From an uncultured Planctomycetia bacterium (GTDB taxonomy: Bacteria; Omnitrophota; Gorgyraeia; Taenaricolales; CAZCCH01): a stretch of 33,743 bases of DNA. Both the position numbers and the translations under genes were made by a program. The notes beneath the pieces are model-generated. The model saw nothing but the letters and a program-made list of their open reading frames with translations, searched no databases and was not told the origin of the DNA. Shown here piece by piece: positions 2,410-33,743 of the stretch. The stretch lies in NCBI GenBank assembly GCA_964497315.1, contig CAZCCH010000015.1, positions 1 to 33,743 on the forward strand, read 5' to 3'. How positions within the stretch are numbered: position 1 is the stretch's first letter; each line of letters opens with the position of its first letter.

Positions 2410-2422
2410 AAGAGGAGGCAGC

Positions 2423-10810: not shown

Positions 10811-11575
10811 ATGTTAGAGCAAGGAAAAATTAAACAAATAGCCCAGTTTTTAAAAAAGTGTAAAAATATTCTGTTTATTACAGGTGCTGGTATTTCCGCT
10901 GATTCAGGGCTACCCACCTATAGGGGTATTGGTGGATTATATAATGATAAAACTACAGATGAAGGGATTCCTATAGAAATGGCCTTGGCAGGAGAGACGC
11001 TTGAGAAACAACCTTTGGTTACCTGGAAGTACCTTGCCCAGATAGAAGAACGCTGCCGTTATGCTAAATACAATCGTGGTCATACAGTTATAGCTGAAAT
11101 GGAGAAACATTTCCCGCGCGTCTGGGTACTTACACAAAATATAGATGGGTTTCATCATCATGCTGGTTCGAAAAATGTTATTGATATCCATGGTGACATG
11201 CATGATATAATATGTACAAACTGTCAATGGCAAGAAACAGTTAAAGATTATAGCGAGATAAAAATCCCACCTTATTGCCCTAAGTGCGACACAATCGCAA
11301 GACCTAAGGTAGTATTTTTTGGGGAAATGCTACCCGTTGATAAGTTAGAGCTTTTAGGTAAAGAACTTCTAAAAGGATTTGATATATATTTTTCAGTAGG
11401 AACAACAAGTGTTTTTCCATATATCCAACAGCCAATTTTGGATGCAACATCAAAGGGATTGACTACCGTTGAAATTAACCCTGATGAAACAGCGGTATCG
11501 CATTTGGTGGATATGAAAGTTTCTGCGGGAGCTGCTGAAACACTGAATGAAATTTGGAAAGAATACAACAAATAG
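10811..11575 (+). CDS. cobB: NAD-dependent protein deacylase (Sir2 family)
   Basis: FITGAGISADSGLPTYRG, TQNIDGFHHHAG, IHG, a Zn ribbon CTNC...CPKC, and RPKVVFFGE. Confidence 0.92.
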   Translation: MLEQGKIKQIAQFLKKCKNILFITGAGISADSGLPTYRGIGGLYNDKTTDEGIPIEMALAGETLEKQPLVTWKYLAQIEERCRYAKYNRGHTVIAEMEKHFPRVWVLTQNIDGFHHHAGSKNVIDIHGDMHDIICTNCQWQETVKDYSEIKIPPYCPKCDTIARPKVVFFGEMLPVDKLELLGKELLKGFDIYFSVGTTSVFPYIQQPILDATSKGLTTVEINPDETAVSHLVDMKVSAGAAETLNEIWKEYNK

Positions 11576-15489: not shown

Positions 15490-16407
15490 ATGGATGGAAG
15501 AATGAAACCACATATTTTTAGCGATAAGGAAAAAATAATTAAAATCCTTGAGGCTACTGGAGTTTCGCGTTCTGAACTTGCCAGGCGCCTTGGGGTGACC
15601 TATAAGACTGTATATAGATGGTTGAATGAAGGAAGGATGCCACATCCGGTCCAATCTAGGGAAATTGAGCAGTTATTTAAAGAGCATATAGATTTAAGAA
15701 ATACTGTTTTTATATTAGCCAAAAAGGTAAAAAACCCTATAGAAATATTAGAGAATAATGAAGGGATACGAGATAGGTTTTTGGTGGAGATGACCTACCA
15801 TTCTAATGCTATAGAAGGTAGTCGCATGAGCAAAAAAGAAACAGAAATGGCCATTAAAGGCAAAAAGATAAAAGATAAAGAGCTATATGAAATCTTCGAG
15901 GTTGTAAACCACAAAAATGCCATGGAGTTTGCATTAGATAACATTAAGCCAAATTTCAAAATTGATGAGAATTACATTTTGAAGCTACATAGTATAGTGA
16001 TGTATAATTTTAATAATAAGCTACCGGGTAAATATAGGACAGGACCTGTAAATTTAATAGGTGCAGATGTGAAGTTGGCTTCAGCACAAGATGTTCCTCT
16101 AAAAATGGGCAAGTTAATCAAGTCTATTAATGATTATAGAGATGATCCAATAGTTAAGATTGCCAAAGATCACTATGAATTTGAAGTGACACATCCTTTC
16201 TTTGATGGAAACGGTAGGGTTGGAAGGCTTATTATAATGACGCAACTTTTAAGTAAAGGGTTTGCTCCTGCTATTATACGGGTTGAAGATAGATATAAAT
16301 ACTATTTTGGACTGGGAAGGGCTGATTTCGGAGATTATAATAATATCACACAGGTAGTTTGCGATGGTATTATAAAGGGATATGAGCTATTAAGCGGTGA
16401 AAAATAA
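15490..16407 (+). CDS. fic: Fic-domain protein with N-terminal HTH (class II, auto-inhibited)
   Basis: Fic active-site motif HPFFDGNGRVGR (16192-16227). N-terminal inhibitory motif SNAIEG ([ST]xxxE[GN], 15802-15819). HTH segment VSRSELARRLGVTYKTVYRWL. Confidence 0.9.
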   Translation: MDGRMKPHIFSDKEKIIKILEATGVSRSELARRLGVTYKTVYRWLNEGRMPHPVQSREIEQLFKEHIDLRNTVFILAKKVKNPIEILENNEGIRDRFLVEMTYHSNAIEGSRMSKKETEMAIKGKKIKDKELYEIFEVVNHKNAMEFALDNIKPNFKIDENYILKLHSIVMYNFNNKLPGKYRTGPVNLIGADVKLASAQDVPLKMGKLIKSINDYRDDPIVKIAKDHYEFEVTHPFFDGNGRVGRLIIMTQLLSKGFAPAIIRVEDRYKYYFGLGRADFGDYNNITQVVCDGIIKGYELLSGEK

Positions 16408-18900: not shown

Positions 18901-18987
18901 CCTCGACAAAGGTAAACTCGACCAAAAAGAGGTGGGGTTCGCAAAGCTGCGGGTCTAATTTTAAATAGATAGCCGGGCTGTCGAAGG
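18901..18987 (+). ncRNA. Candidate GEMM-I-like cyclic-dinucleotide riboswitch aptamer in the giant-gene leader
   Basis: Hand alignment to the V. cholerae Vc2 aptamer recalled from memory: GACAAAGG / UCGCAAAGCUGCGGGUCUAA / AUAGAUAGCCGGGCUGUCGAAGG versus GGCAAACC / ACGCAAAGCCUCCGGCCUAA / GUAGGUAGCGGGGUUACCGAUGG. A closing helix forms between CCTCGAC (18901-07) and GTCGAAGG (18980-87). Not verified with a covariance model. Confidence 0.5.
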
Positions 18988-19011
18988 AAACTATTTCGGC
19001 AGTCTTTTTTT
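18976..19011 (+). terminator. Intrinsic terminator / expression platform overlapping the 3' arm of the aptamer
   Basis: GGCTGTCGAA (18976-85) pairs with TTCGGCAGTC (18995-19004) around a 9-nt loop, followed by seven T. It lies 23 nt upstream of the giant-ORF ATG. Confidence 0.65.
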
Positions 19012-19033
19012 ATCTAAAAAATAGACTATTATT

Positions 19034-22000
19034 ATGAAACTATCAAACTCTAATATCCACAAAATTATATCAATAGCACTCCTTGTGACGTTTATGATGT
19101 CACTGATAGGGCCGGAGCTTGCCTTAGCTTCTTCTGAAACCCTTAGACCCCATGTTACATCAAGAAAAAAACCTCTTCTAAAAGAGATGATTGCAAGGTT
19201 TACTGAGTTGCAACGTCCTTCAGTAGCATCTAGTGCAGAAGACTTTAGAAAAGATGAAGTGCGCATAGTTAGAGAAATGACTGAAGCTGGACAGCTTTAT
19301 TTTCGCCATGAACCAGAAAAACCAAGTGCAATATACTATATACCATTTTTGCGATATAGAGCAAGGCTTACACGTTGTAGGGGTGTAGCTGATTATACCA
19401 GTGCTGTGTTGAATGAGAAAGATAGAAGGTTTTCTACATTTAAGAGTGAGCGCGATGGTTTTGAGCGTTGGTTTAGAACTTCCCAGGAAGGTTTTCCATC
19501 GGCAGCATTGTACGACATTGATGTTCATCCTCAAGACTTAAATGATGCCATTGCAGCACTCATAGAGCAGAAGACCAAAGAAAAGGACAATACCATTACT
19601 GTCAGGGCCTTCGGTTCTGGTTTACCGGCCTTACTTTTACCTGGAGATCCAGCTACACTTCTAGCAGGAGATGTTGAAATAGAAACTATTTTAAAGTTTA
19701 TATTATCAGGTCTAAGGCATACCAGGAATAAAGCAAAATGGACTGTGGTAGTTTATGTATATGATAAAAAGACAGCTTATTTAGGGCAACTGGAAAAGGT
19801 TCTTTTGGAAAAATTAGAAAACTCACCAATGCCATTTAATATTGTATTAAATCTTAGATATGGTGATATAGCAGATAGAGAGCAATACCCATATATGTTT
19901 GAAGAACAAAGTGACATTAATGTTTGCCGTAATATCACTCAAAGTGGTGAGAGTTTTTCTAAAGGAGATAGTATTTTTCATGGGCAATTAGTTAATAGCC
20001 TGTCACCTCATGGGTTTATTATACATGGTGCGCGTAGAAGGGGAGATAGGATTATATTAGCTTCTGATAGAGATGCTCTTAAGAGGTTAAGTGGCGATTT
20101 TCTGGATAGTAATTCTTCAGAAGATGAAGCTACTAGTAGGTTTTCAGAAATAGGTGCAATAGGTCACTTGGAAGAGGAAAGAAAAACAGAAGATCTTATT
20201 GCTGCATTGACTGCCTTTGATATTCCTTTTATACCCACAGAAAGCAATTGTGAATTTACAAGAATTTCCGCAGGTCATTCAAACCTTACGTATAATATTA
20301 AGCATAATGGCAAAAATAGGCATATTCTTCAACAAATGAGCACAATTTATGATGCAAATGCCCTTAATGCTAATCTGAACTTATTAGAACAGGCTCAAGA
20401 TGCATGGCTTAAGGAAGGCGCAGAAGATGAATACTGGCAGCCCGTTCATTATGTTAATGTCAAGGGCGCTTCTGATAAGCTATATTGTGATACAGCAGGC
20501 AGAATTTGGCGTTTAATGGATTATATTCCAGGAGAGGTTTTTGGAAAATTTAGTGATGTTCCTCAGAGTGATCGTAGAGAGATTGCCCAATCTCTTGGTA
20601 GGGCAATTGTTGTTTTTCGAAGAATGCTAGAATCAGTTCCTTTAGAAAGCTGGGAAAAGGATATGTCAGGTTTTCATGATCCACAATACTTTTATGCTTA
20701 TCTTCATTCTATTTGGCTGGGTCAGGAGGTGCCATTGAATTTTACTGATGGATCATCACATATGGTAGTTAGAGATCCTAGCGTAACAAGTGAATATTCA
20801 GAAAGAATAAATCTCTTAAAGAGAAAGATTGAAGATAGGAGACATATCTTAACTAGCTTAGATGAACTTGGCCAGGTTGTTTCACATGGAGATTTAAAGA
20901 TTGATAACCTATTCTTCCGAAAACACAAAGGCCGCTGGAAGTGCATATCTATTGCTGATTTAGATACGATACAACCTAGAAACGTCCTTACTGATCTTGG
21001 TGATGCACTGCGTTCTGCCGGCAACCCAGCTGGGTCAGAACCGAGAGCAATAGATGATGTAACAATAGATGTTGATGTGGTCACAAATATAATAAATGGA
21101 TACCTAGAAGCCACAGCAGGGTTTTATGATCACACAGAGGCAGAGCGCTTGAGACCACATACTATTGAGGCATTTAAACTTCTTCTGTATGGGCAGTCTA
21201 TGTGGTATTTAGCAGATGCACTTACTAATAGCGCATACTTTAATATAGGTGCAGAGAGAGCGCTATATAAGGCAGAGGTGCAGATGAGGGCATTGGAGCA
21301 GTTGGAAGAGTTAAGTCTAATTAAAGATGGCCCATTTGCTGATTTTGTCAAACCTGATGCCAGTAGGTTTGGGGAAAGGACTGCCGAAGAACGAATTGCT
21401 GCGCTGCGGGAAGATTTGGTGTATTATGAAGCAGCCGCGACAGCGTCTTCAGCACCTGATCAGGATTTTCCAGATGATATTTGTGATGTAGGTACAGGCG
21501 AAGCCCACCTGATGAATGAAGTCCACATTGCAGCTGATTCTGATGAGCGCCCTGAAAGAATAATTAGCGCATACACCGCTGGTCCTTGCCGGGCATATGT
21601 TATTAAAGGTAGAGTAAATGATGAGACAAGATTGTTTCTACGACATAGAGCTGCGGTAGAGGGCATACTTGATGATTTAAGAGAAGATATAGCCGCTTTA
21701 GAGAGAGCTGGCATGCAAGATAGAGAGGTTGTTTTTAAGCTTGATTTAAAGACGCAAGCCGGCCTGGAGGTCGTGAGGCTTGGATGGGTTTCTCCAGAAG
21801 AACTGAGGGAAAAAATTAAGGAAATATGCGGGCCTCGAATCTATACAGAAGAAGGCATTTTCCCACATGAAATTACTGATGTAATTGCAACCCAGGAAGG
21901 AGTAGTTATTTATTGCCCATATAATTCTAATGCCTCCAAGATTATCTTATGGCCAGAAAGCAAGGAAGGTGTATTCATGGATGCTGTATTGCCCAATGCA

Positions 22001-25000
22001 GAAGTCGTAGAGGATGAGGCATTTTCTGCTCAAAGCAGGTTTGGGGAAATGGCTGTTGATGCACTCAAGGGGAACATAAAGAGAGCGGTGTCTGTATTTA
22101 GGGATACGGCTATTGTAAAAAGTCCACAGTTAATAGAGGAAGACAAAAACAGAGTTTGGGTTATTAACAATATCTTTGAAGATAGATTCCTTCTAGATAG
22201 CGTAGTTTTAAAAGATCCAGACCCTAAACATGAAGAATATTTTTATGCTTCAAGAGAAGGGCTTGATATGTATGAGGCCCATTTTGAGAGTGACTATCCT
22301 CGCGTTGAAATAGCCCAAACAGTGATAATCGATAATCCGAAGGAAAATGATCTAGTTGGTACAAAAAGGGCATCACAGTGCCTTCCACTACTATTTGCTA
22401 ATATTCCTGATAACAAGCCCAACATGATAGGTTCTTCTCATATATTCACTTCGACAGACCCGACATTTTCATCCTTGGGTGATAAACTTCTTGACGCTGG
22501 ATATGAAAACCTAATTGTTGTAATTCCTCGTCCGAAAAAGCTTGGACGAACCGTAGCTCCATTCGCATTAAGAACATCTCAGTATGAGGAGGTGATAGCT
22601 AATATGCGAGCTAAAGGAATTACAGTATACGAGGTACCTTATCAAGACGTTTCAATAAGTGCTGCCGCAACAGCAGATGGTTTTGCGATATTCATAGAAA
22701 AATTCGTTGACCCCACAACAAAAAGGACAAAAGACATTGAAGAATTTGTTCTTCTTGAACCTATAAAAACATGGCAAGAATTCTCAAGTAGGTTTGGGGA
22801 GGTTGCTATTATTGAAGGTAATGCTGCACCGGAAGTTCTTCCGGCAACAGAGAATAGGATAGAGCTTGCGTTGAATATGCCTTCTGAAAGGGCTACGCAA
22901 ACAGGAACTGCCTGTATTAGACCCACGAAGGAAAGGGGATTTGCTGATGTATGGAGCCGCAGGGATTTTATGAAAGCCGGTGCTTTTGCTACGACTGTAG
23001 CAACTGTTTTTGGCAGTTTACCGAAGACCGGAGTTGCTGCTACGCCAGATGCTATTAAAGTCAAGGCAAAGGAGCTTTGTACACAATATTTAAAAGATGT
23101 TTGCGATGAGAAGATAACACTTGGACTAGATAATAGTTTAGGAACCTGGCGTGAAGTTCTCAAGGACAGGGAAGAATACGCCGACTTACTCAAGCCCGAT
23201 AATAATTATGCATTGCTTACTGCGTTTGTTTTTGACACGTTGTTTCCTGCGCTAGAGGAAGCTGCAAGCCGAACACGTGTCAGTGCCCATAACGCATCTA
23301 TAAATATAGAATTAGCCTTAATGAATCTCTTGGATAAAAAAGATGAAAAGGTCGAGGCATTTTTACGTCATACCTTAGCCAGGACCACTGACTCCTTGGT
23401 TAGAACAAGACGAATCCAGAATAAGGTAGAACGCGATAGACGAATTGGTATTGCACTGCAAAGACTGGAGAGCGCCTCTGCTTACATAGGGCCAGAGATT
23501 TCAGATAAGCTGGTTAGTATAGTCAAATTACACGATAGTTTAACGCAGCTTGGTCTGGAGCAAAAGGAAGAGATAGAAAGAGTATCCATGGAGATCAATA
23601 GTTTGATAATAGACCTAAATAAAATTCTAATTCCGCTTGGCTTATACTGCAGGGTTTCAATGAATGTAAGTCTGGGTGATGACAAAGAGCATATCTACAT
23701 CAAGTCGTTTAAAATAGAAAAAACCCGTTTATATAAAGCAACTGACGGCAAAGTTGTTAAGGTCTATATTGTAAAAGGGATAGATAACATAGCTATAACA
23801 AATGTCTTTGGTTTTCGCAGACTGGAAACAGACTATGCTGTAGTAATTTTAGATAATATAGAATCCAAAGCGAGAGACATAGAGGAAGTCCTAAAACATG
23901 GAAAATCTGATGCCCATAAGGATATAGAGAGCAGGCTGACTGCAATTGGGAAAGCAAGATTAGCAGACCTAAGGGTTTTACTTGTTGAGCTGGCAAAAAA
24001 GGAATTTAGTGGTTTGACCAGACAGCAAATAATGAATAAGATTCAAGTTTTAATCGAGACCCACGAGATAAGACATGTATTAGATAGGGGTAACTTTACA
24101 AGGGAAGAGCGCGATAAAAAAGAAGGTTCGGCTTTTATGGCAGAATTGATTCTGGCAGAATTGATTACAGGTACAGCTACATATTATAGTGTATTAAAAT
24201 GGGCTGAACATGTATTCAGAGGAGGAGAGCATGATTATGCCGCAAGGATGGTATTTGAAGGATTGATGAAAAAAGCAAAAGAGAAGGGATATGTAAATGC
24301 ATCCGTAAACCTGAAACATGTTAGCTTTAGAGAGTTGATAAAGACAGTAGAGACATTGCGCAGGCTAAGTAAGGGTGAAATTGCAGGTCTGGCAAGAGAG
24401 TCCTATAAAGAAATATTTGGTTTTGAATTTATAGATGCCTTGCCTGTCATTCAGCCTCCTGGTCGCTTTACCGAGCCAAAAAAGACAGCAACGTGTGAAA
24501 TAGCAATTAGAGGGAGAATGCATATTATACCCTCAGACTTGCTTGCCTATGAGCTATCAAACCTTTATAACGCAGTTAGGGGTAAGATTAATTTTACATT
24601 TAAGAAGGAGCTAGGAGACGATAGAGTTCTTGAAATGACTAATCCCGGGACAATAACTAATATTCTTAGCTTTGGACTGGGGCCTGGGGATATTCTAGAA
24701 GTTAGCGTGGAAGAGGACCTACCACGAGATGTGCAGGAAGAGGCATTGAATTACATTGAGGCTTTGTTTAATAGCTACCATATACTACAAGCAACTCAAT
24801 TGGCGCAGATGCATGGTGCTGAGCAGGCACGGATGGCTTTAGGTGGAACACCCTATGTTGATCTTGCCTCAGCAGAGCAGTATGGATTGGAGATAGTGCG
24901 TTCAGATCTATCTAGCAGTCTTTGGCCTGCATTAAGAAGACTAATAAGCATGTTGAAGCGTGATGTTGAGATTTCTCGTTTTACAGAAAGGGGAGATGAA

Positions 25001-28000
25001 ATACCCACTTCACCAGTCGATCCTGCAAGGTTTAGGGAAGATAGTAGGCTCATAGATGAGCGGGCAAGGGATATGCTGAAGGTGCTGTGTGAAAGCAGGC
25101 GCAGCCAGCCAACCAACACCAAAGCACGAAGGGCATTGGTGCGTTTAGAACACCTCGTGGATTCCAGATGGTCGTATGGTGAACAGTGGAGCGAAGTTAT
25201 CGATACATTGCGCGAAGCCGGACTCATCACCTCAGATACGGCAGGGTGGCTCGGCAGTTTGGATGATGAAGTTGTGCGCAGAACCATGTTCTATGTGACT
25301 GTGCGTTATCTTGACATAATGGAGCATGAAGTTTTATTTCACGGAACCTCACTGCATAACATAGACAGTATCAAGAAACATGGTCTGCACCCTGAGCATG
25401 TACCCCCGGGCAAAGAAGAACTTCAAAGGGTATTTGGCATAGTAGGCAAGGCGCTCGGAGAAGATCGCGCAATGGAGATTACAGAAGGTCAATTAAGTTT
25501 TGAATATGATCTAAGCCTTGCTAATTTTTACTTTGCTATCCTAGGCCCTGAGATGTTGCGAAGAGCGATAGGGGATTTACAAGAAATAAAGAAGCTAGGT
25601 TTTCCTGAAATTGATGAAGCAGATAGAAAATTTATAGAATATTTTCTTGAGCACTGGAATGATGGGTATCTTTCTTCAAACCAGCCATGCCTTCTGGCCG
25701 TACCGTTTAAGACAATCGTACAGTTTATGGATTTAGAGCAAGACGCTTACCAAAGGGATCGGACTAGGTTTCTGAAAAGGCCGCACGAATTTTTTAATGA
25801 TGTTATATTGCTTTACCTGTTTCCTTGGGAAACCTGGGTGGGGGAGGGTACATTGTTACCATTCCGCCTTCCAGCGCTTGATAAAATTGAAACAGCAATG
25901 CACGAACAAATGGCCGTTACCTTCCATGACGTGCATACATATTCCAGACCTAACTATGATCTGGGTGATATTTATGTTGTTACTGGTAAAAGAGATGCCC
26001 TCAATCTAGTACCGCTAAAACAAGTAGAAATAGATGAGCTTGAGAGAACCGCTGTTGTCCTCAGAGAAGTAAATCAAGAATGTCAAGAAAAACAAGGAGA
26101 AGTTTTCAATCGTAGCTTTTCTTCCCAGGAAGCACTTGATTTTTGCGCCGAGCTTCACAGCATTGCCCGGGAAGCCATTGCCAAGTCAAATTATGAGAGA
26201 ACCGATGGGTTATCAGGTGCTCGCTTTTCTGAGCAAGTTGAGTTTGTGGAGGATAAACTGGTCAGGGAACCAATAGAGGATGAAAATCTAACCTTGGACC
26301 AAGTGGAACAAATTGAAAGAGACAGACAGCAGATTGAAGCAGAATTGACTCGGCACTACGGGGATGCCGAGGCGTTTTTTGGAGAAGGACCACGTGATGG
26401 GATAAGAATTATTGCAACCACTGATGAAGAAGGCGAATTGATAGCAACTAGCCCCATTTATTATATAGCCCAAGGGGTAGCAATAAATGAGACCAGGCAA
26501 GAGGTATTGCTGAATTATCTTAATACGACTAGAGCGGGGATAGCAGAAGAAGGTTCGCGATATACGGTTTTTCATGAGATGGGTCACTGGGCTAATGAAA
26601 GTAGAGGTATTTCTAGTATAGTGCGGGAATTGATAGGTCCACAGATGGAGGAGATAGCGGCTTCGCATATTGAGAGGCATCCGGATGAATTGGGATTTTA
26701 CCTTGACTTGTATAATTCAAAGCTTAGAGAAGGTGAGATTCCTGTGGATAGGCTGCAAGAGTTACTGAAAGGCTGTTTAGTCGTCAAAGGCCTTACGCTT
26801 TTCGAGGATTGCTTGGTTGACAGGCAGTTATTAGAGTTAGCTCGCGCAGGAGATCTCGAAGGACTTGACAGAGAATTAATTGGTACAAGGAAAATACTTT
26901 TAGGCGATAAGCTAAAACAGCCAGATCTTTGTTGTCTCGCCATACTTAGATACAGGCTGCTTGAGGAAGTATATTCTCCAGATGATAGGACCAAGGTAGA
27001 TATTTTCCCGGATGACTTCAATCCAGAAAACTTTGGAATAAACGCAGAAATGATGAAGCAGATAGATGATGATGCGCGAGCGATGGCTGTGGCAATCAGG
27101 GGTGCGGAGCGCATGATAGCTAAATACGCGCCAGGAAAAATTGCGCCTCCAGGAGATTTGAGGGATTTAAAAGGCAGGCTGAAGTCATCTGTTGGAGATT
27201 TTATGCGACCATTGAAGAAATATCTTACCATTCCTGCGCTAATTTCTTATTTCAAGCTTAATCATACCCGAGTAGATCCCACGCGTTTCACCGAGGGTAC
27301 GGGTTCACTTAGTGCGGAGGGAAATTTGCCCGGCGATCAAACACTAGGTACTAGTGATTATTCCCCTGCCCGGTTTGTGGAAGGGGATGCCATTGCGCAA
27401 TGGCCTATTTCTATTGACGAGGCATTATTAAGAAGTGGTGAGTCTGCACGAGCTATTGCTGTAGAACCTGACTATGTTCCACCTTATGGAGTTTTAGCTC
27501 CTGGAGCTATTAATATTTCTGATTATCTCGCACTTGGCATGCTTGCTGCTTCAGGGATATCAAGTGAGCCGCAAGGGCAGGATGGGAAATTGAGCCGCAG
27601 GACGTTTCTTAAAGCTGCAGCCGCAGGAGCAGGCGTGGCAATTGGCAGCGCAGTAGTTCACAAGGTTCTAAAAAGCGATGATATAACACCGCGCATTTTA
27701 GATGATGCAGCCGATGAAAGATTAAGAAATGCTGGTAAGGCGATAAGTGCTAAATTCATGCATGTCTATGAAGAATACAAGGACAAAAATCCCGCCGAAA
27801 CAAAGCTGGTACGTGCACTTTTTAGAAAAATAAATGACCACAAGACAGAAAAGGAGATCATGCACCATCCTGAGCTTAAACACAAAAAAGATAACGTAGA
27901 CGTACTAATGGGTATAGGCGAACCTGCCGATGATAATGGTGAATCCCCTATCTATCTTTCATATAGCATACTGGGCCAACCCGATGAGATATTATGGGCA

Positions 28001-29113
28001 AAAATGGTCCACGAAGGATGGCATGCATATAATGAAATCCTCAAGAAGGCCAGTGGTGCAGCGGAGGCTATACGGCATGCACAAGATGAGATGCTTGCTA
28101 ATATAACCGAATGGGTTGAAAATCCCCAAAATCGCGATTCCATTAAAAGATATTTTAGCATTTGGGTAAATGAAGAGGAAATTGCCAATAGCTTGGAAAG
28201 AGCAGTTTTTGTTAGAGAAATAGGCGGTTCAGACAATGAGGCTATCGAAAGATTTGTGCAAAAAGCTATACAGCAAAATCCCAGGGCTCAGGCAGATACG
28301 GGCTCAGGCAGCAAAGAGAGAAAAGAGGCCTATGCGAGACATCTGAGAAGGTATGTAAGAGATCGAATACTGAGATATTATCGAATTCCCTCGTTACATG
28401 GTAGATTGCGATATATACTTAGTAGCTATTATTCACATGTAAAACCTGCTGTGTACATCGGGTTATTTCTAACAGAATTTTATGAAGGACGAGCTGATCA
28501 TCGAACTAGGACAACGAGCCCAGGCAGAAAGTTCTTCATAGGGCCAGATAGAATCGAACTAAATATAAGATCTCATGGAGCTAGTGGGCAGCAAAGGCTT
28601 ATTCTTACGCCTAAAGAGAATTTTTTAGAATGGGCATCGAACTGGGCAAATTCTGAGGAATATAAAAGATTGTTTGTGAAACCAGAAGGCCTTACGAAAA
28701 TGCGCGGTTCCCGCTTTTCCGAAGCCTCCCAAGCCATATTTGGCAAAATTGAGCAACCCACAGGCATAATAATGAAAGCAGATTTTGCTACTAAAATCTT
28801 TCCAGTTTTGCCAGAGTTAGCAGTCCACTTTGGCCAAAAGGTAACAATTGCTGTAGTGGGCCCTTCACAGCTAAAGGAGAGAATAACCAAAGTAAATGCA
28901 GTCTTGCCACATGATGTATCTATTATACTATGCGATACCATTGATGAAGCAGCCAAGGAGTTGTCTGAGAGAGGTATAGGCCTTATCAGATTACTCACCA
29001 GAAAAACAATAAAAGACCTTCCTTTGGTTCGTGAAACCCTCCTTATTACAGAGAAGACCCTACAGCTAATAGATGAGTTGAGATCCCGCAAAGAAATAGC
29101 TGGTGGGGCATAA
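19034..29113 (+). CDS. Giant (3,359-aa) multi-module secreted/membrane protein of unknown function
   Basis: Uninterrupted 10,080-nt ORF. N-terminal Sec-type signal (aa 1-32, ALA|SS). Internal kinase-like, HPr-like and HExxH segments, plus two internal twin-arginine signal-like segments. See findings. Confidence 0.9.
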   Translation: MKLSNSNIHKIISIALLVTFMMSLIGPELALASSETLRPHVTSRKKPLLKEMIARFTELQRPSVASSAEDFRKDEVRIVREMTEAGQLYFRHEPEKPSAIYYIPFLRYRARLTRCRGVADYTSAVLNEKDRRFSTFKSERDGFERWFRTSQEGFPSAALYDIDVHPQDLNDAIAALIEQKTKEKDNTITVRAFGSGLPALLLPGDPATLLAGDVEIETILKFILSGLRHTRNKAKWTVVVYVYDKKTAYLGQLEKVLLEKLENSPMPFNIVLNLRYGDIADREQYPYMFEEQSDINVCRNITQSGESFSKGDSIFHGQLVNSLSPHGFIIHGARRRGDRIILASDRDALKRLSGDFLDSNSSEDEATSRFSEIGAIGHLEEERKTEDLIAALTAFDIPFIPTESNCEFTRISAGHSNLTYNIKHNGKNRHILQQMSTIYDANALNANLNLLEQAQDAWLKEGAEDEYWQPVHYVNVKGASDKLYCDTAGRIWRLMDYIPGEVFGKFSDVPQSDRREIAQSLGRAIVVFRRMLESVPLESWEKDMSGFHDPQYFYAYLHSIWLGQEVPLNFTDGSSHMVVRDPSVTSEYSERINLLKRKIEDRRHILTSLDELGQVVSHGDLKIDNLFFRKHKGRWKCISIADLDTIQPRNVLTDLGDALRSAGNPAGSEPRAIDDVTIDVDVVTNIINGYLEATAGFYDHTEAERLRPHTIEAFKLLLYGQSMWYLADALTNSAYFNIGAERALYKAEVQMRALEQLEELSLIKDGPFADFVKPDASRFGERTAEERIAALREDLVYYEAAATASSAPDQDFPDDICDVGTGEAHLMNEVHIAADSDERPERIISAYTAGPCRAYVIKGRVNDETRLFLRHRAAVEGILDDLREDIAALERAGMQDREVVFKLDLKTQAGLEVVRLGWVSPEELREKIKEICGPRIYTEEGIFPHEITDVIATQEGVVIYCPYNSNASKIILWPESKEGVFMDAVLPNAEVVEDEAFSAQSRFGEMAVDALKGNIKRAVSVFRDTAIVKSPQLIEEDKNRVWVINNIFEDRFLLDSVVLKDPDPKHEEYFYASREGLDMYEAHFESDYPRVEIAQTVIIDNPKENDLVGTKRASQCLPLLFANIPDNKPNMIGSSHIFTSTDPTFSSLGDKLLDAGYENLIVVIPRPKKLGRTVAPFALRTSQYEEVIANMRAKGITVYEVPYQDVSISAAATADGFAIFIEKFVDPTTKRTKDIEEFVLLEPIKTWQEFSSRFGEVAIIEGNAAPEVLPATENRIELALNMPSERATQTGTACIRPTKERGFADVWSRRDFMKAGAFATTVATVFGSLPKTGVAATPDAIKVKAKELCTQYLKDVCDEKITLGLDNSLGTWREVLKDREEYADLLKPDNNYALLTAFVFDTLFPALEEAASRTRVSAHNASINIELALMNLLDKKDEKVEAFLRHTLARTTDSLVRTRRIQNKVERDRRIGIALQRLESASAYIGPEISDKLVSIVKLHDSLTQLGLEQKEEIERVSMEINSLIIDLNKILIPLGLYCRVSMNVSLGDDKEHIYIKSFKIEKTRLYKATDGKVVKVYIVKGIDNIAITNVFGFRRLETDYAVVILDNIESKARDIEEVLKHGKSDAHKDIESRLTAIGKARLADLRVLLVELAKKEFSGLTRQQIMNKIQVLIETHEIRHVLDRGNFTREERDKKEGSAFMAELILAELITGTATYYSVLKWAEHVFRGGEHDYAARMVFEGLMKKAKEKGYVNASVNLKHVSFRELIKTVETLRRLSKGEIAGLARESYKEIFGFEFIDALPVIQPPGRFTEPKKTATCEIAIRGRMHIIPSDLLAYELSNLYNAVRGKINFTFKKELGDDRVLEMTNPGTITNILSFGLGPGDILEVSVEEDLPRDVQEEALNYIEALFNSYHILQATQLAQMHGAEQARMALGGTPYVDLASAEQYGLEIVRSDLSSSLWPALRRLISMLKRDVEISRFTERGDEIPTSPVDPARFREDSRLIDERARDMLKVLCESRRSQPTNTKARRALVRLEHLVDSRWSYGEQWSEVIDTLREAGLITSDTAGWLGSLDDEVVRRTMFYVTVRYLDIMEHEVLFHGTSLHNIDSIKKHGLHPEHVPPGKEELQRVFGIVGKALGEDRAMEITEGQLSFEYDLSLANFYFAILGPEMLRRAIGDLQEIKKLGFPEIDEADRKFIEYFLEHWNDGYLSSNQPCLLAVPFKTIVQFMDLEQDAYQRDRTRFLKRPHEFFNDVILLYLFPWETWVGEGTLLPFRLPALDKIETAMHEQMAVTFHDVHTYSRPNYDLGDIYVVTGKRDALNLVPLKQVEIDELERTAVVLREVNQECQEKQGEVFNRSFSSQEALDFCAELHSIAREAIAKSNYERTDGLSGARFSEQVEFVEDKLVREPIEDENLTLDQVEQIERDRQQIEAELTRHYGDAEAFFGEGPRDGIRIIATTDEEGELIATSPIYYIAQGVAINETRQEVLLNYLNTTRAGIAEEGSRYTVFHEMGHWANESRGISSIVRELIGPQMEEIAASHIERHPDELGFYLDLYNSKLREGEIPVDRLQELLKGCLVVKGLTLFEDCLVDRQLLELARAGDLEGLDRELIGTRKILLGDKLKQPDLCCLAILRYRLLEEVYSPDDRTKVDIFPDDFNPENFGINAEMMKQIDDDARAMAVAIRGAERMIAKYAPGKIAPPGDLRDLKGRLKSSVGDFMRPLKKYLTIPALISYFKLNHTRVDPTRFTEGTGSLSAEGNLPGDQTLGTSDYSPARFVEGDAIAQWPISIDEALLRSGESARAIAVEPDYVPPYGVLAPGAINISDYLALGMLAASGISSEPQGQDGKLSRRTFLKAAAAGAGVAIGSAVVHKVLKSDDITPRILDDAADERLRNAGKAISAKFMHVYEEYKDKNPAETKLVRALFRKINDHKTEKEIMHHPELKHKKDNVDVLMGIGEPADDNGESPIYLSYSILGQPDEILWAKMVHEGWHAYNEILKKASGAAEAIRHAQDEMLANITEWVENPQNRDSIKRYFSIWVNEEEIANSLERAVFVREIGGSDNEAIERFVQKAIQQNPRAQADTGSGSKERKEAYARHLRRYVRDRILRYYRIPSLHGRLRYILSSYYSHVKPAVYIGLFLTEFYEGRADHRTRTTSPGRKFFIGPDRIELNIRSHGASGQQRLILTPKENFLEWASNWANSEEYKRLFVKPEGLTKMRGSRFSEASQAIFGKIEQPTGIIMKADFATKIFPVLPELAVHFGQKVTIAVVGPSQLKERITKVNAVLPHDVSIILCDTIDEAAKELSERGIGLIRLLTRKTIKDLPLVRETLLITEKTLQLIDELRSRKEIAGGA

Positions 29114-29165
29114 TAAAGACAAAGTAAAATCCCCAAAGAAAAATAATTTATTAAAAGAAAAGCCC

Positions 29166-29194
29166 TTGACAGAAGGGAGTTTCTGGTATATACT
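29166..29194 (+). promoter_or_regulatory. Sigma-70-type promoter for the DUF134 gene
   Basis: Consensus TTGACA (29166-71) with TGgTATATACT (29184-94) giving a 15-17-nt spacer. A perfect 12-bp palindrome GAGCATATGCTC (29201-12) lies just downstream. Confidence 0.5.
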
Positions 29195-29254
29195 ATTAAC
29201 GAGCATATGCTCATAATAAATAGGGGGTTTATAGAGAGAGTAGTTGGAGGAGGC

Positions 29255-29554
29255 ATGAAACCCAAAGGAAGACCCAGGAAGATACGGTATATAAAAGGAG
29301 AGCCTAAAATAGCTCAATTTAGCCCTAGAGGAAGGCCTGGAAGGCCGGATGAAGTTGAGCTTACAATAGATCAATATGAGGCTATAAGGCTTGCAGATTT
29401 TAGGAATATGAGCCATAAGCAGGCTGGCAAGATGATGGGAATATCTAGACAAACCTTTGAAAGGATTTTAAAAGAGGCCCGCAAAAGGCTTGCTGAGGGT
29501 GTCATAGTTGGTAAGATTATACGGTTTCAAGGAGGTTGTTTTAAAGTAGGATAG
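29255..29554 (+). CDS. DUF134/UPF0251 family DNA-binding protein
   Basis: MKPKGRPRKIRYI...F.P.G......V.LTIDQYEAIRLADF.NMSHKQAGKMMGISRQTFERILKEARKRLAEG is the characteristic DUF134 pattern with a sigma-70 region-4-like HTH. ATG 29255 is preceded by GGAGGAGG, and the track start at 29207 is less likely. Confidence 0.85.
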   Translation: MKPKGRPRKIRYIKGEPKIAQFSPRGRPGRPDEVELTIDQYEAIRLADFRNMSHKQAGKMMGISRQTFERILKEARKRLAEGVIVGKIIRFQGGCFKVG

Positions 29555-29944
29555 TTTTTAAAAACCCACCAAAATATTACCAAATTTAGCCTAAAAAACC
29601 CCGAACCTATATAAACATATATCAGATACTATTAGATACAGGTGCTTGTGGGGCGTATTCTCCACAAATTCCCAATGTCCTATAATATATCTTATGTAAA
29701 CTACGATATTTAAAAGAAATAAGCCTAACTTGTTATAATTAAAGAAGTTACGTGAATTAGTGGAAAACTTGTGGATAACTGATCTTAACTATGCTGGCGC
29801 CATCATTGGGTATTTGCTTTTATATATAATTAAGCACGAAATAACCTATTACTGGAATCAGATCATACTTGTTTAAATACAGCCAACTCATAAATACATT
29901 AAGAAATCTTTTGCTTTTCTGTCAAAATCTAGTATAATCTATTC

Positions 29945-30952
29945 ATGATAAAAATAGGTTCTCTAACGCTTAAAAGCAGGCTAATTTTAGCCCCTCTCTC
30001 TGGTACATCTGATTTGCCATTTAGAAGGCTTACTAGGGATCATGGCTGTAGATTTGCCTTTTATGAAATGCTAGATTCTTCAGCCCTTGTGCATGCTCAC
30101 AAGCGCACTCTAAAAATGCTTGAAAGTAATTCAAATGACGAACCTATTGGAGCTCAGATTTTAGGTTCAGATCCTGGCCAAATTTTGGATGCATGTCAGG
30201 TAATTTTAGCCAATTCAACCCCCCACTTAATTGATCTAAATTGTGCTTGTCCTGCCAAGAAAATACTACGTAAAAAAGCGGGTGCTTATTTTTTAAGAGA
30301 GCCCAAAAAAGCAGGCAAAATCATCAAAAAATTAGCCTCTCTTCTTCCTATACCTGTCACAGTTAAGGTTAGGCTTGGGCTTGACAAAAACAGTGCCTCA
30401 GAAGGCCTGAAATTGGCTAAGATGGCCCAGGAAAATGGGGCTTCAGCTGTTTTTTTTCATGGGAGAACTGTAGAACAAGGCTATGCTGAAAGAGTTAATT
30501 ATGAGGCTATAAAGGAGACAAAGCAAGCTCTTGAAATACCGGTTTTTGGTAGCGGAGATATCCTAAGTGAAAAACTAGCAAAAGAAATGCTGGATAGGAC
30601 TGGCTGTGATGGCCTGTTGGTAGCCAGGGGAGCCATAGGAAGTCCTTGGATTTTTAGGCAAATTGAAACTTACCTAAGAGACCCAAGTGCCCCTATTTTT
30701 TCACCTTCTTATGAAGAAATTACAGCTATTGCCAGAAAACACCTTGAACTATATATAGACTGGAGGGGTGAAAAAGTAGCCCAAAAATACTACCTCGGCC
30801 ACATTCGAAAAATAGCTATATGGTACTCAAAAGGTCTGCCTTACTCCAAAAGAGCTCGAGAAGCCATATCCAAGGCTAGCAGTTCTAGTGAAGTTATAGA
30901 AGTGTTAGGCAGGTTAAATCGAGATTATGATAAGAGTTGGTTTAAAAAATGA
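29945..30952 (+). CDS. dus: tRNA-dihydrouridine synthase
   Basis: LAPLSGTSDLPFRRL, DLNCACPAKK (catalytic Cys), VTVKVRLG, HGRT and VARGAIGSPWIF motifs of the Dus family. Confidence 0.92.
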   Translation: MIKIGSLTLKSRLILAPLSGTSDLPFRRLTRDHGCRFAFYEMLDSSALVHAHKRTLKMLESNSNDEPIGAQILGSDPGQILDACQVILANSTPHLIDLNCACPAKKILRKKAGAYFLREPKKAGKIIKKLASLLPIPVTVKVRLGLDKNSASEGLKLAKMAQENGASAVFFHGRTVEQGYAERVNYEAIKETKQALEIPVFGSGDILSEKLAKEMLDRTGCDGLLVARGAIGSPWIFRQIETYLRDPSAPIFSPSYEEITAIARKHLELYIDWRGEKVAQKYYLGHIRKIAIWYSKGLPYSKRAREAISKASSSSEVIEVLGRLNRDYDKSWFKK

Positions 30953-30989
30953 AATTATAATGAAAAATTGGTGGTTTTTTGGTGGGAAG

Positions 30990-31439
30990 TTATTTCAGCT
31001 TGTATCTTTTTCGATATGCTTCTTCATTAATTAGCTTTTTATGGTCAAATCCTACCTTGTATCTATAAATTAAAGAATAAGCACCAGGGTGGGTTTTATT
31101 AACTATTTGATCAAGTAAGATATGCAGGGATATACCCATTCCGATACCTAACCATAGCCCTCCTTTCTGCAACAAGACTATGGCTATGAGATAACCTAGT
31201 ATAAATTCGTAAGAATGCAATAAAAAGTATATTTTTTTAAGCTTTAAGTTCTGACAGACATAAATGGTTTTTCGAATGTCAAATTTAGGTCCAAAATTCA
31301 TATAGCAGTCTAGTACATGGTCCAAGTCTAAAAAAATACCTCCTAGAAAGGCCCCAATTGTCATGGGGATAGACCTGAACAGGTAAAATAAAACTCCGCT
31401 TAAAACAGCACTTGTTGCTATGTGAGCAGGTAAACGCAC
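30990..31439 (-). CDS. YdjM/DUF457-like membrane-bound metal-dependent hydrolase
   Basis: 149-aa polytopic ORF beginning MRLPAHIATS (conserved His) with a FLDLDHVLD motif, as in the DUF457 family. Confidence 0.55.
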   Translation of the reverse strand: MRLPAHIATSAVLSGVLFYLFRSIPMTIGAFLGGIFLDLDHVLDCYMNFGPKFDIRKTIYVCQNLKLKKIYFLLHSYEFILGYLIAIVLLQKGGLWLGIGMGISLHILLDQIVNKTHPGAYSLIYRYKVGFDHKKLINEEAYRKRYKLK

Positions 31440-31473
31440 CTTTACTCCTCTTCTTTTGTGTGAAATTATATGG

Positions 31474-31513
31474 AAAATCCCCCAAATTAAAACTTATATT
31501 CGGGGGATTTTTT
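31474..31513 (-). terminator. Intrinsic terminator downstream of csp
   Basis: On the minus strand, AAAATCCCCCGAA...TTTGGGGGATTTT forms a hairpin followed by a T-run. It lies between the csp stop (31529) and the next minus-strand gene. Confidence 0.6.
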
Positions 31514-31528
31514 AGCTAAAAAAACAAC

Positions 31529-31732
31529 TTATTCTACTTTTTTGACGTTAGTTGCCTGTTCGCCTTTAGGGCCTTGAGTTACCTCAAATTCTACCTTCTG
31601 GCCTTCTTCGAGCGTTTTGTAACCTTCAGCTTCTACAGCTGAAAAGTGTACAAATACGTCCTTACCTTCATCTGTAGTAACGAAGCCATAACCTTTCTGG
31701 TTACTAAACCATTTCACTGTTCCTGTTGCCAC
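31529..31732 (-). CDS. csp: Cold-shock protein (CspA family)
   Basis: 67 aa. Contains [15 protein letters not shown] (RNP-1) and VFVHFSAV (RNP-2). Confidence 0.95.
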
Positions 31733-31915
31733 TTGCCTCTCCTCCTTTCCTATGTTTATTTTGGAGAGCTAACTTCGAAGGTATAAAAAAACCGCAATAT
31801 CCTAAAGAAAAATAAGACTTGCGGCTTTATTTTCGTAGTTCTTTATTATATTGTATGTTGCGTTTGTTGCGCATACTACAAAACCCTTAAAAGCTTATTC
31901 TCCAACTGCAAGCTA

Positions 31916-31945
31916 AATATACCATTTTTTTGGCATATTTGTCAA
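31916..31945 (-). promoter_or_regulatory. Candidate csp promoter (would give a ~175-nt 5' UTR)
   Basis: Minus strand reads TTGACA (31945-31940), an 18-nt spacer, then TGgTATATT (31924-31916). It overlaps the 3' end of the upstream 581-aa ORF. Confidence 0.4.
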
Positions 31946-31955
31946 GGTTTTTTGC

Positions 31956-33701
31956 TTACCAGCTGCTAGTAAATGTCAAGAATGTATCTATGCTATGCTG
32001 GGTGTCAGTTTGCTCATCTTTTGCTGAAAGAGACATGTATTTAGTACCATATTCATCAAGGCGATACCTGCATAAGCCTTCTATGTCGTATCCCCCTGTT
32101 TGGTTATTTAATGCAAGCCTAGAAGATAGCTCTAAAGAATCATCTAGGTTAAAACCAAGCCCTATTTCTTGTTCGCAGACCTGCCAAATGCCTTGATTCT
32201 GCCAGTTTAGATTAGCTAGCCAAAGATTAAATGATTTTTCCCCTATATTATACCTTAGGTCTGTACCATAGCGCATAAGGCTGCGCCCCAAGTCATTTTC
32301 TAGGAATAACTCTGCATTCAACCCCAATATATCAAAATTTGTAAATCCCTTTATATGATTGAAACTAAAAGAATCATTCATGTGTAGTTGACTACCCAAT
32401 CTTAACCATGGCATAACTTCAATAGAGGGTGATACCTCAAAGCCATTATTTACATCTCTAGATAGGTATAAATCCAATTTCCTATCCCATATTTGTCTTT
32501 TGATTTCTGCTTCTATCTTGCTTGCAAAACGCAGTTCCATCATCCTATCAAGAGAGCTTTTGCCTGAGCCAACTAATTTAATCTTATAATCATTCCTGTC
32601 AAGTTCAACAGGTATATATGGATAGAAGTATTGGCTTAGACGCCAACCATAGGTAGGATTATCTATAGTAACGCCGAATTTTCCTCCAGGAATAAATACC
32701 CCATTATCTTCGAGCTCTTCTGTGTAAAGAGCGTTATTAGAAAGGCTTTTGTTTATTCCAATGTCTATATCCTCATCAAGATAATATAAATACGCCAATC
32801 CATCAAAGGAAATGAAATTCCCAGATATACTAAAAAGATCCCTGTGGTACTTTCCATAGATACGATGTGCAGAAGTGCTGGCCCACAAGTGAGTTTGGCT
32901 GTATGAATCTAGGAAAAGAGGCATATCCAATGCCAACTTACCATATTCCTGGCCTATAACTCCATCCTGGTATTCTCCTTGATAGCTTGCCTCAGGTGTG
33001 AAGTAGACCCCAGGGCCTTCCATTCCCTCTTCTCCTCCACTTCCCTCTATGGAATCGCCTAATTCTTGCACCAGTTGCCTTTCAGCAGCTTGCATATAGG
33101 AATCTACCCCTTCGTACCTTAAGGCATCAAAGAATTCCCACAGCCTCCCCTGAGGAGTGTCTGCATCAATTATGTCAATACAGTCATAAGATGAAAGGTT
33201 TATCTCTTTTAGATCAATAGCAAGCGAATGTATAACATCATCCCATTCAGGATTTCCAGTAGTTAGATATTTTTCCAATTCGCGCGGGTTTATCCTTACT
33301 TCTTTTAAGCTAGCATGAATGGTCTGATTTCGAACATCTTTACCTATACGCCTTGTCTCATAATTACTGAATACCTCTTCTAAGGTATCTGCAATTTCAT
33401 CTTCTGGGTATGTTTCTACCTCTATTATATAAACATCGTTATACAAACCACCTACATTTGTATATTTGTTAAAATCTACTCTCGCGCCAGTAACATCAAG
33501 CAACACGTCATTAAACCTGAATCTACCATCTCTCAAGGTATCTTCGCCTTTTGCCCAGGCTACGTTAGTTTCTATTGCACCATCTTCAGATATACTATGC
33601 CATTGCCCTCCATCTTCTTCAAGGTTCAATTCAAATATATTACCATTATAATCGGCCCTAAGTAGTTTTTCCAGCTCATCGTATTCAGCAGGTAATGTCA
33701 A
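31956..33701 (-). CDS. Hypothetical acidic protein with beta-barrel-like C-terminal half
   Basis: 581-aa ORF with a TTG start immediately after an in-frame stop. The N-terminal half is acidic. The C-terminal ~200 aa show an alternating beta-strand pattern ending FLTFTSSW. No signal peptide is visible. Confidence 0.55.
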   Translation of the reverse strand: MTLPAEYDELEKLLRADYNGNIFELNLEEDGGQWHSISEDGAIETNVAWAKGEDTLRDGRFRFNDVLLDVTGARVDFNKYTNVGGLYNDVYIIEVETYPEDEIADTLEEVFSNYETRRIGKDVRNQTIHASLKEVRINPRELEKYLTTGNPEWDDVIHSLAIDLKEINLSSYDCIDIIDADTPQGRLWEFFDALRYEGVDSYMQAAERQLVQELGDSIEGSGGEEGMEGPGVYFTPEASYQGEYQDGVIGQEYGKLALDMPLFLDSYSQTHLWASTSAHRIYGKYHRDLFSISGNFISFDGLAYLYYLDEDIDIGINKSLSNNALYTEELEDNGVFIPGGKFGVTIDNPTYGWRLSQYFYPYIPVELDRNDYKIKLVGSGKSSLDRMMELRFASKIEAEIKRQIWDRKLDLYLSRDVNNGFEVSPSIEVMPWLRLGSQLHMNDSFSFNHIKGFTNFDILGLNAELFLENDLGRSLMRYGTDLRYNIGEKSFNLWLANLNWQNQGIWQVCEQEIGLGFNLDDSLELSSRLALNNQTGGYDIEGLCRYRLDEYGTKYMSLSAKDEQTDTQHSIDTFLTFTSSW

Positions 33702-33743
33702 TTAAATTGTGTAAATTCCTTTAAGGGTTTATCCTCCCACTTG

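Follow-up and report, generated by a model that had tools for sequence, protein, structure and literature searches.

A 3,359-residue mosaic protein of an Omnitrophota bacterium, preceded by a c-di-GMP riboswitch, and a twelve-fold linker motif that may mark processing sites

The long open reading frame and its leader

The DNA analysed here, referred to as the window, is a stretch of 33,743 nucleotides (contig CAZCCH010000015.1 of assembly GCA_964497315.1, from JGI metagenome 3300009311). It was found to possess one very long open reading frame (ORF) of 3,359 codons, which alone exceeds the 775 amino acids (aa) of the runner-up. The ORF lies downstream of a riboswitch for cyclic diguanosine monophosphate (c-di-GMP) and encodes a chain of unrelated segments, in the linkers of which the motif R-F-x-E occurs 12 times. 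It is highly probable that this is a single genuine gene of the mosaic type known from Omnitrophota and that the riboswitch controls it. The leader and the ORF are located as follows:

18901-18985, plus strand: c-di-GMP-I riboswitch aptamer (RF01051, 43.5 bits against a gathering cut-off of 35)
18975-19015, plus strand: intrinsic terminator (12-bp stem followed by TTTTTTT)
19034-29113, plus strand: long ORF (ATG start, 3,359 aa, stop-free; DNA of about 40% G+C)

A preliminary description of this DNA, made from the sequence without database searches, had noted a single 10-kb stop-free mosaic frame composed of three modules (A, B and C). The frame is borne out by an identical 3,359-aa product recorded on five contigs. 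A second assembly record, L002 (ENA ERZ23499064, SAMN11854494), matches the window base for base over 21334-33743, bar a 10-N scaffold gap, and spans both junctions at which a fusion had been suspected (22.9 kb and 27.5 kb) without difference. The gap (L002 2799-2808) stands in for two bases of the window (CT), and because of it the gene caller split the ORF in L002 into products of 940 and 1,658 aa. The protein database represents the cluster by the 1,658-aa fragment, which is why searches with module A miss even the protein itself. A near-identical strain variant (P0003), which ends in another C-terminal octapeptide, also spans the 27.5-kb junction. The arginine codon usage is host-like, as in the neighbouring genes, along the whole ORF, while the G+C content at third codon positions (GC3) rises mildly from 0.26-0.33 in module A to 0.39-0.40 at aa 2003-2750.

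The leader had been described as being of a cyclic-dinucleotide type, and the RF01051 match identifies it as c-di-GMP-I. The match is full-length (model positions 1-87 of 87) and scores above the family threshold; the clan relative RF03167 recognises the same aptamer with 41.8 bits (E 9e-9). The 5' arm of the terminator is the 3' strand of the aptamer, an overlap that forms the expression platform, and the terminator hairpin is the minimum free energy structure of the ligand-free leader. These modelled structures suggest an ON switch, in which the ligand-bound aptamer would keep the terminator from forming.

The R-F-x-E linker motif

The copies of R-F-x-E are distributed over the whole chain:

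19196-19207, plus strand: motif 1, aa 55, A-RFTE
20138-20149, plus strand: motif 2, aa 369, S-RFSE
21365-21376, plus strand: motif 3, aa 778, S-RFGE
22037-22048, plus strand: motif 4, aa 1002, S-RFGE
22790-22801, plus strand: motif 5, aa 1253, S-RFGE, 56 aa before the first of two internal twin-arginine (RR) leaders
24464-24475, plus strand: motif 6, aa 1811, G-RFTE, directly after the end of the domain cassette D5 (described below)
24977-24988, plus strand: motif 7, aa 1982, S-RFTE
25028-25039, plus strand: motif 8, aa 1999, A-RFRE
26222-26233, plus strand: motif 9, aa 2397, A-RFSE
27284-27295, plus strand: motif 10, aa 2751, T-RFTE
27371-27382, plus strand: motif 11, aa 2780, A-RFVE, 75 aa before the second RR leader
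28712-28723, plus strand: motif 12, aa 3227, S-RFSE, ahead of the last 129-aa segment

The 12 copies observed compare with 0.9 expected and with a maximum of six in 2,000 shuffles. When all patterns of three defined residues out of four were scanned without bias, R-F-x-E was by far the strongest (p 2.3e-10); the lowest p that any pattern reached in 300 shuffled controls was 5.4e-7. The neighbouring proteins of the window contain no copy in 6,114 aa, and the background in the ORFs of 85 other loci (607 thousand aa) is 0.24 per 1,000 aa, with at most two per ORF. The residue before the arginine is S, A, G or T at every one of the 12 sites (P 6.5e-8), and the x position is G, S or T at ten of them. 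The flanks are enriched in P, S, G, T, D and E (P 2e-4), and hydrophobic residues are under-represented there (P 1e-3). The kinase match and the D5 block described below are free of sites, and by its sequence context the extended motif, [S/A/G/T]-R-F-x-E, sits in linker-like sequence and never within a recognised domain.

The arginine of the motif is encoded by AGG at some sites and by CGC, CGT or CGG at others, so the motif is conserved as a peptide and not as a DNA repeat. A DNA-level repeat was considered as the source of the motif and rejected, as the 15-nt sequence AGYAGGTTTGGGGAR is present at three sites only and the others have CGN codons. The three sites that share it are motifs 3, 4 and 5 (21365-21376, 22037-22048 and 22790-22801), which may reflect a linker duplication within module A; the other nine are CGN.

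The position of site 6 can be compared with relatives of D5. Two of them (P0015 and P0018) terminate at the end of D5, where site 6 follows in the window protein. In P0006, which is the closest relative (43% identical) and a fragment truncated at its 5' end from a sister sample, T-RFAE aligns with site 6. Two pairs of sites are in tandem, 17 aa (aa 1982/1999) and 29 aa (aa 2751/2780) apart. Overall, division of the chain at the sites yields three short spacers and pieces of 129-558 aa, which are mutually unrelated; no internal paralogy was detected among ten segments. The division into three modules was thus too coarse, since the motif and the domain matches together give about ten unrelated segments.

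Signal peptide, kinase and internal leaders

The recognisable elements of the chain outside D5 begin with a signal peptide and a kinase, followed further along by the two RR leaders:

19034-19129, plus strand: Sec-type signal peptide, aa 1-32 (n-region with K2 and K10, h-region IISIALLVTFMMSLIG, ALA/SS cleavage site; read by eye)
20255-21319, plus strand: NahK/APH-type kinase domain, aa 408-762 (PF01636 and NahK structures)
22955-23047, plus strand: Tat-like leader 1, aa 1308-1338 (SRRDFMKAGAFATTVATVFGSLPKTGVAA), RR at aa 1309 (TIGR01409, 16.0 bits)
27587-27667, plus strand: Tat-type leader 2, aa 2852-2878 (LSRRTFLKAAAAGAGVAIGSAVVHK), RR at aa 2855 (PF10518 and TIGR01409)

The Sec-type signal, as read preliminarily, has a hydropathy of 2.0 and a charge of +2 before and -1 after the hydrophobic stretch, and this N-terminal segment is the sole strongly hydrophobic one of the protein. 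The kinase call was likewise sustained. PF01636 matches aa 408-672 with E 2e-10 (41.2 bits against a gathering cut-off of 23.2), and when the segment was searched alone the solved structures that matched best, 4ocu, 4wh1 and 4ocj, were those of N-acetylhexosamine 1-kinase (NahK), at aa 412-762 with E 6e-12. The alignment extends across both lobes and keeps the HGDxxxxN loop: HGDLKIDN (aa 618-625) and DLD (aa 642-644) are aligned to HNDTKLNN and DLD of NahK, and the NahK-typical block DLDTI-P…L-D-GD-R is present in the segment. As judged from this alignment, the NahK-like kinase has intact catalytic motifs. Compared with NahK, overall similarity is low (48 bits), and the kinase is embedded, behind a signal peptide, in a chain of 3,359 aa. 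The described arrangement of cytoplasm-type enzymes behind export-type leaders was supported. Calls of a Rossmann/methyltransferase-like stretch, CheD-like segments and an HPr-like segment received no support from Pfam, NCBIfam, the Protein Data Bank (PDB) or PHROGs.

Two internal signals of the twin-arginine translocation (Tat) type had also been proposed. Leader 2 passes both Tat models (PF10518, 23.9 against 22.7 bits; TIGR01409, 25.1 against 16.7 bits), and leader 1 lies just under their cut-offs, its RR columns being kept in the D5-family alignment (A1). Their hydropathies (1.08 for leader 1 and 1.56 for leader 2) are typical of Tat h-regions and not of membrane helices. Between the leaders the maximum is 1.42, which is less than that of leader 2, and several segments exceed the 1.08 of leader 1. 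If both leaders are read as being of the N-in type, without a comparably hydrophobic segment between them, they could not both work in one uncut chain. A Tat signal is N-terminal, whereas the RR pairs here (aa 1309 and 2855) lie inside one continuous ORF and would become N-proximal only after cleavage or internal initiation.

The D5 cassette

The first RR leader heads a domain cassette, here called D5, which recurs in other proteins:

22928-24463, plus strand: D5 cassette, aa 1299-1810 (leader, helical bundle, five-stranded sheet, HExxH…E helices)
24062-24139, plus strand: metal-site motif, H1677-E-I-R-H1681 … E1697-x-x-A1700 (conserved in A1)

An exhaustive HMMER search of aa 782-1981 against 1.84 billion representative proteins yielded 17 proteins, and every match was confined to aa ~1281-1809, that is, leader 1 and the HEIRH region; aa 782-1252 and 1815-1981 had no relative in that search. 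The other regions were covered by word-indexed searches (aa 1-1281, 1282-2400 and 2401-3359), which returned only fragments of the same protein, and a scan of genome contigs with the whole protein gave no match. Metagenome contigs scanned with an alignment of three D5 sequences also gave no match, in a collection that lacks the source contig itself. The segments other than D5 share nothing with 16 D5-family proteins. None of the 17 D5 members is matched by a Pfam-A or NCBIfam model, and D5 thus belongs to a family outside both collections that recurs in other long mosaic proteins.

Most of the matches are long mosaics of 1.4-3.6 thousand aa in which the cassette lies at varying internal positions, twice in one protein, and downstream of domains of cytoplasmic type, namely HATPase_c, methyltransferases, HTH_8, a sugar transferase or phosphoglucose isomerase. 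The internal location of the RR-leader cassette is thus seen in long ORFs from unrelated assemblies as well. Of the 15 cassette copies for which upstream sequence is available, 10 start (by inspection) with [S/T]-R-R-x-F/L and a hydrophobic stretch ending in A-x-A or A-Q, and conservation of the RR columns in the D5 alignment is 70% or more. A riboswitch was sought in five loci of D5-family relatives and none was found.

The HEIRH at aa 1677, first picked out by eye, belongs to the metal-site motif of the family. In alignment A1, H1681, E1697 and A1700 (H383, E399 and A402 when numbered from aa 1299) are invariant and H1677, E1678 (H379 and E380) and E1709 nearly so, which gives the consensus HExxH-x15-19-E-x-[R/S]-A-[F/Y]. 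A confident AlphaFold2 model built from the family alignment (predicted local distance difference test score (pLDDT) 87.3, predicted template modelling score 0.83) has a helical bundle, a five-stranded sheet and helices bearing the HExxH and the conserved glutamate. The two-lobe fold of the M49 peptidases is present in this model. As modelled, D5 resembles a metal-binding domain with a fold like that of dipeptidyl peptidase III (DPP III) and DUF6421. A Foldseek search of the model against the PDB returned no match, a search of the D5 profile against PDB sequences returned designed helical proteins only and no DPP III, and the Pfam profile Peptidase_M49 matched none of the 17 members, even at E up to 10.

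In having a pentapeptide HExxH and then E-x-[R/S]-A, D5 is reminiscent of the motifs of M49 and of DUF6421/PolE. Set against the M49 zinc motifs, HExx(G)H and EEx(R/K)A(E/D), D5 has a conserved HExxH and E-x-[R/S]-A-[F/Y], but with a shorter spacing and with F or Y in place of the last acidic residue, and in DUF6421 a site of this kind serves an Fe oxidase. An atypical M49 enzyme (5zum) has a pentapeptide HELMH and EEAKAD (PMC9820243), and PolE (DUF6421) combines a DPP III-like fold and HE/DxxH-x21-23-E with the activity of an Fe/pterin-dependent oxidase (PMC12614342). Compared with both, D5 is 8-11% identical, has a shorter spacing from HExxH to E (15-19 residues), lacks a further conserved catalytic histidine and has an extra N-terminal helical bundle with the RR-hydrophobic leader. 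It is also embedded in long mosaics, whereas DPP III and DUF6421 are free cytosolic enzymes.

Some further features of the relatives were observed. The gene of P0015 (HTH_8, HATPase_c, methyltransferase and D5) is directly followed by a PilZ gene and then by a secretin gene (L086, 10721-11047 and 13104-14810), a neighbourhood as reported for Omnitrophota giant genes. Several D5-family proteins (P0010, P0011, P0019, P0020 and P0021) have two blocks in common, the N-terminal 'LLPNLPAPGQ…VHPENPLLFDFI.DRG' and the C-terminal 'GGIDF/L … G(L/F)xPVIxxIxPI..LPxILG'. By their sequence these look like a lineage-specific head domain and a sorting-type tail; neither is found in the window protein. P0007 contains a genuine D5 core, but 'FFFNDTATTEIYTLSLHDALPIS' close to the start of this protein and 'IGRAHV' at the end look like junk or chimeric sequence.

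Other segments of the chain

Three further motifs lie in the C-terminal half:

25295-25396, plus strand: possible ADP-ribosyltransferase (ART)/Tpt1-like H-G-T stretch, aa 2088-2121 (sub-threshold)
26573-26587, plus strand: HEMGH motif, aa 2514 (no family match)
28010-28024, plus strand: HEGWH motif, aa 2993 (no family match)

As to the ART-like call made earlier, only the H-G-T stretch is matched, over 26-34 residues, by PARP (E 0.042) and RNA 2'-phosphotransferase (Tpt1; E 0.007), but the scores of 13.8-16 bits are far below the cut-offs of 26.7-239. The HEMGH and HEGWH motifs, both listed preliminarily, are present. Alignment of the HEMGH segment with the D5 profile by hhalign was not significant, and the same program detected no significant relation of segments D8 and D9 to D5. 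A single-sequence AlphaFold2 model of aa 2040-3239 had a pLDDT of 35 and was unusable.

Host and neighbouring genes

The neighbouring Dus protein has its best matches in metagenome-assembled genomes (MAGs) of Candidatus Omnitrophota, at 66, 55 and 46% identity, and other phyla follow after a gap at only 31-37%. By this protein the host is a Candidatus Omnitrophota bacterium. The nearest Omnitrophota MAG, by Dus, has no long ORF beside its Dus gene.

The genes around the long ORF are ordinary chromosomal genes of the type of a diderm anaerobe, including those for D-Tyr-tRNA deacylase, inositol monophosphatase, Dus, flavodoxin, an M48 peptidase, a patatin-Omp85 fusion and DUF3187. A phage origin, which the arrangement of the genes all on one strand had suggested, was rejected on account of these housekeeping and outer-membrane neighbours and of the absence of PHROGs matches; a defence system was rejected as PADLOC gave no match. 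The helix-turn-helix (HTH) gene noted downstream of the ORF does match DUF134/HTH. Its proposed membership of the same system was not supported, as no link was found and the gene has its own promoter-like site.

Four other genes were recorded in the window, of which the SIR2 and HTH-Fic genes showed no link to the long ORF:

10811-11575, plus strand: stand-alone SIR2-family protein, a few kb upstream of the long ORF
12235-14562, plus strand: fusion of a patatin-like phospholipase with an Omp85-type barrel, 775 aa (PlpD-like, type Vd autotransporter architecture)
15490-16407, plus strand: HTH-Fic protein, a few kb upstream of the long ORF
31956-33701, minus strand: 581-aa ORF without a Pfam match, also present in L002

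Comparison with known systems

Long or giant, poorly conserved mosaic ORFs have been reported for Omnitrophota (bioRxiv 10.1101/2023.11.21.568195; bioRxiv 10.64898/2026.06.07.730766; PMC10066038), and 94% of a catalogue of 916 such proteins have signal peptides and/or transmembrane segments (bioRxiv 10.64898/2026.06.07.730766). This literature includes an explicit 'multi-enzyme' architecture class and PilZ genes, encoding c-di-GMP receptors, downstream of giant genes; cleavage of the proteins is suspected in it and no cleavage points are known. The statement in the preliminary description that no described family has this combination was therefore overstated, as long multi-enzyme proteins with a signal peptide and membrane segments had already been described in the phylum.

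The window protein resembles this class in being encoded in an Omnitrophota genome, in tiling many unrelated enzyme-type domains in one ORF, and in having a signal peptide and later hydrophobic segments, poor conservation and few annotated domains. Both are also connected with c-di-GMP, PilZ genes lying downstream of the giant genes and beside the relative P0015, and processing is suspected and unproven in both. The differences are also clear. At 3,359 aa the protein does not reach the length at which the catalogues start (10 thousand aa or 20 kb), and it has no C39 or S8 peptidase, SecA, dockerin or adhesin domains. The window holds no type II secretion/pilus locus or PilZ gene, PilZ and secretin being found only beside P0015, and c-di-GMP control would be by a riboswitch and not through PilZ or GGDEF. 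Finally, the window protein carries a repeated linker motif, of which a term search of two giant-gene preprints found no mention.

Other c-di-GMP-I riboswitches that control secreted or surface genes show the same plan of a full-length aptamer and terminator platform before a signal-peptide protein; compared with these, the host phylum and the type of gene regulated are new as far as the searches showed.

In MARTX and large clostridial toxins, unrelated enzymatic modules are combined in one exported polypeptide and freed by site-specific cleavage of linkers (PMC2900308, PMC6315884). The likeness lies in a large chain of exported type with several unrelated enzymatic modules, cleavage being only proposed here. 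Unlike MARTX, the 3,359 aa contain no RTX repeats, inositol hexakisphosphate-activated cysteine protease domain or type I secretion signal (Pfam, NCBIfam). The cleavage motif of these toxins is Leu-containing and not R-F-x-E, and there is no sequence relation.

What is new is the linker motif, the D5 cassette family and the probable riboswitch control; the kind of protein has already been described for the phylum.

Interpretation

The reading that we consider best, with a probability of roughly 0.4, is that of a c-di-GMP-induced polyprotein which would be cut at its R-F-x-E linkers. At high c-di-GMP the aptamer would be stabilised and the terminator blocked, so that the gene would be on. The R-F-x-E linkers of the resulting chain would be site-specific cleavage sites, and the cutting enzyme would be either an HExxH module of the chain itself or a protease from another gene. 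Besides short spacers, cutting would give about ten separate proteins, each 130-560 aa long; among them would be the NahK-like kinase, the domain with the DPP III fold, the remaining HExxH segments and several modules without detectable relatives. Two of the products would carry a Tat-like leader near their new N-terminus, so that their export or anchoring might not depend on the first product, which is headed by the Sec signal. The cleavage step, taken by itself, has a somewhat less than even chance of being right. The scheme as a whole, with R-F-x-E as a processing code that yields about ten proteins, two of them exported by Tat after cutting, is more doubtful. The idea of a self-processing polyprotein had been raised preliminarily, and the twelve-fold [S/A/G/T]-R-F-x-E motif lends it one new support.

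Several observations weigh against a cut polyprotein. No protease with R-F-x-E specificity was identified. P0006 is the single informative relative for conservation of the motif, and more distant D5-family proteins show no enrichment of R-F-x-E, so that the motif is not a general code of the family. Leader 1 is just below the cut-offs of the Tat models (TIGR01409, 16.0 against 16.7 bits; PF10518, 13.7 against 22.7 bits), the Tat hidden Markov models (HMMs) recognise none of the relatives' leaders, and sequence features and HMM scores are the sole basis on which the Sec signal and the Tat-like leaders were assigned. D5, the sole well-modelled HExxH domain, lacks a further conserved histidine, and by its sequence it may be a peptidase or an oxidase, the fold being common to a Zn peptidase (DPP III) and an Fe/pterin oxidase (PolE).

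The main rival is an uncut multi-enzyme chain of 3,359 aa, secreted and/or membrane-associated, in which the motif would be a linker cap or docking element and the internal RR leaders would either be relics of their ancestry or serve for weak association with the membrane. This rather doubtful alternative gains from the lack of a known protease and of the motif in distant relatives. It agrees as well with the combination of signal peptide and membrane segments in 39% of the 916 catalogued Omnitrophota long proteins, and with the D5 relatives, which carry the RR-hydrophobic stretch behind HATPase_c, methyltransferase, phosphoglucose isomerase or sugar transferase in single ORFs. However, linkers are not usually as specific as these 12, which share a five-position motif and are otherwise unrelated, and the tandem sites and two successive N-in type leaders with nothing comparably hydrophobic between them also speak against an uncut chain.

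A multi-effector toxin, delivered to a host or prey in which the kinase, ART-like and HExxH modules would act and be processed in the manner of MARTX, overlaps both the polyprotein and the uncut chain and is unlikely. Omnitrophota have been inferred to be episymbionts or predators whose giant proteins may act on target cells (PMC10066038), c-di-GMP control would suit an attached state, and ATP- and possibly NAD-dependent modules do lie behind an export signal. Against this, Pfam, NCBIfam, PHROGs and PADLOC revealed no translocation or pore-forming region, RTX repeats, cysteine protease domain or type I secretion signal, the NahK-like kinase is of a sugar-salvage type and not a typical toxin, and the 33.7-kb window is without secretion-system genes.

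It is very unlikely that the ORF comprises several translation units in frame, with modules B and C also made from internal starts (M1282; M2836 or a TTG at aa 2853) and their Tat leaders thereby N-terminal. In-frame methionines do occur 27 and 19 aa ahead of the RR pairs, and the TTG, with AGGA at 7-nt spacing, would yield MSRRTFLK. However, no Shine-Dalgarno-like sequence is found at a usable distance before M1282 and none before M2836, promoter and terminator signals within the ORF are not above chance, many unrelated long ORFs have the RR-leader cassette in their interior, and R-F-x-E is common to all three modules.

That an assembly or indel artefact fused three genes, for which the metagenomic origin of the contig and the rise in GC3 might be cited, is extremely improbable and already largely refuted at contig level by the five contigs, the agreement of L002 and the strain variant over the junctions, the 3,359 codons without a stop at about 40% G+C, the host-like arginine codons and shared motif throughout, and the same internal arrangement in relatives.

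Significance

The literature explicitly leaves open whether Omnitrophota giant proteins function as single chains or as cut pieces, and [S/A/G/T]-R-F-x-E may be a possible first clue to whether they are processed. At 3.4 thousand aa, with a twelve-fold and statistically unambiguous motif at the borders of recognisable domains, the protein offers a manageable test case. The RR leader with its DPP III-fold metal domain would be a new building block that recurs in long mosaics, and the riboswitch would add, beside the PilZ and GGDEF partners, a new regulatory link to the second messenger of attachment. If the polyprotein reading is true, the R-F-x-E sites would give the long proteins of Omnitrophota their first set of cleavage points defined by sequence.

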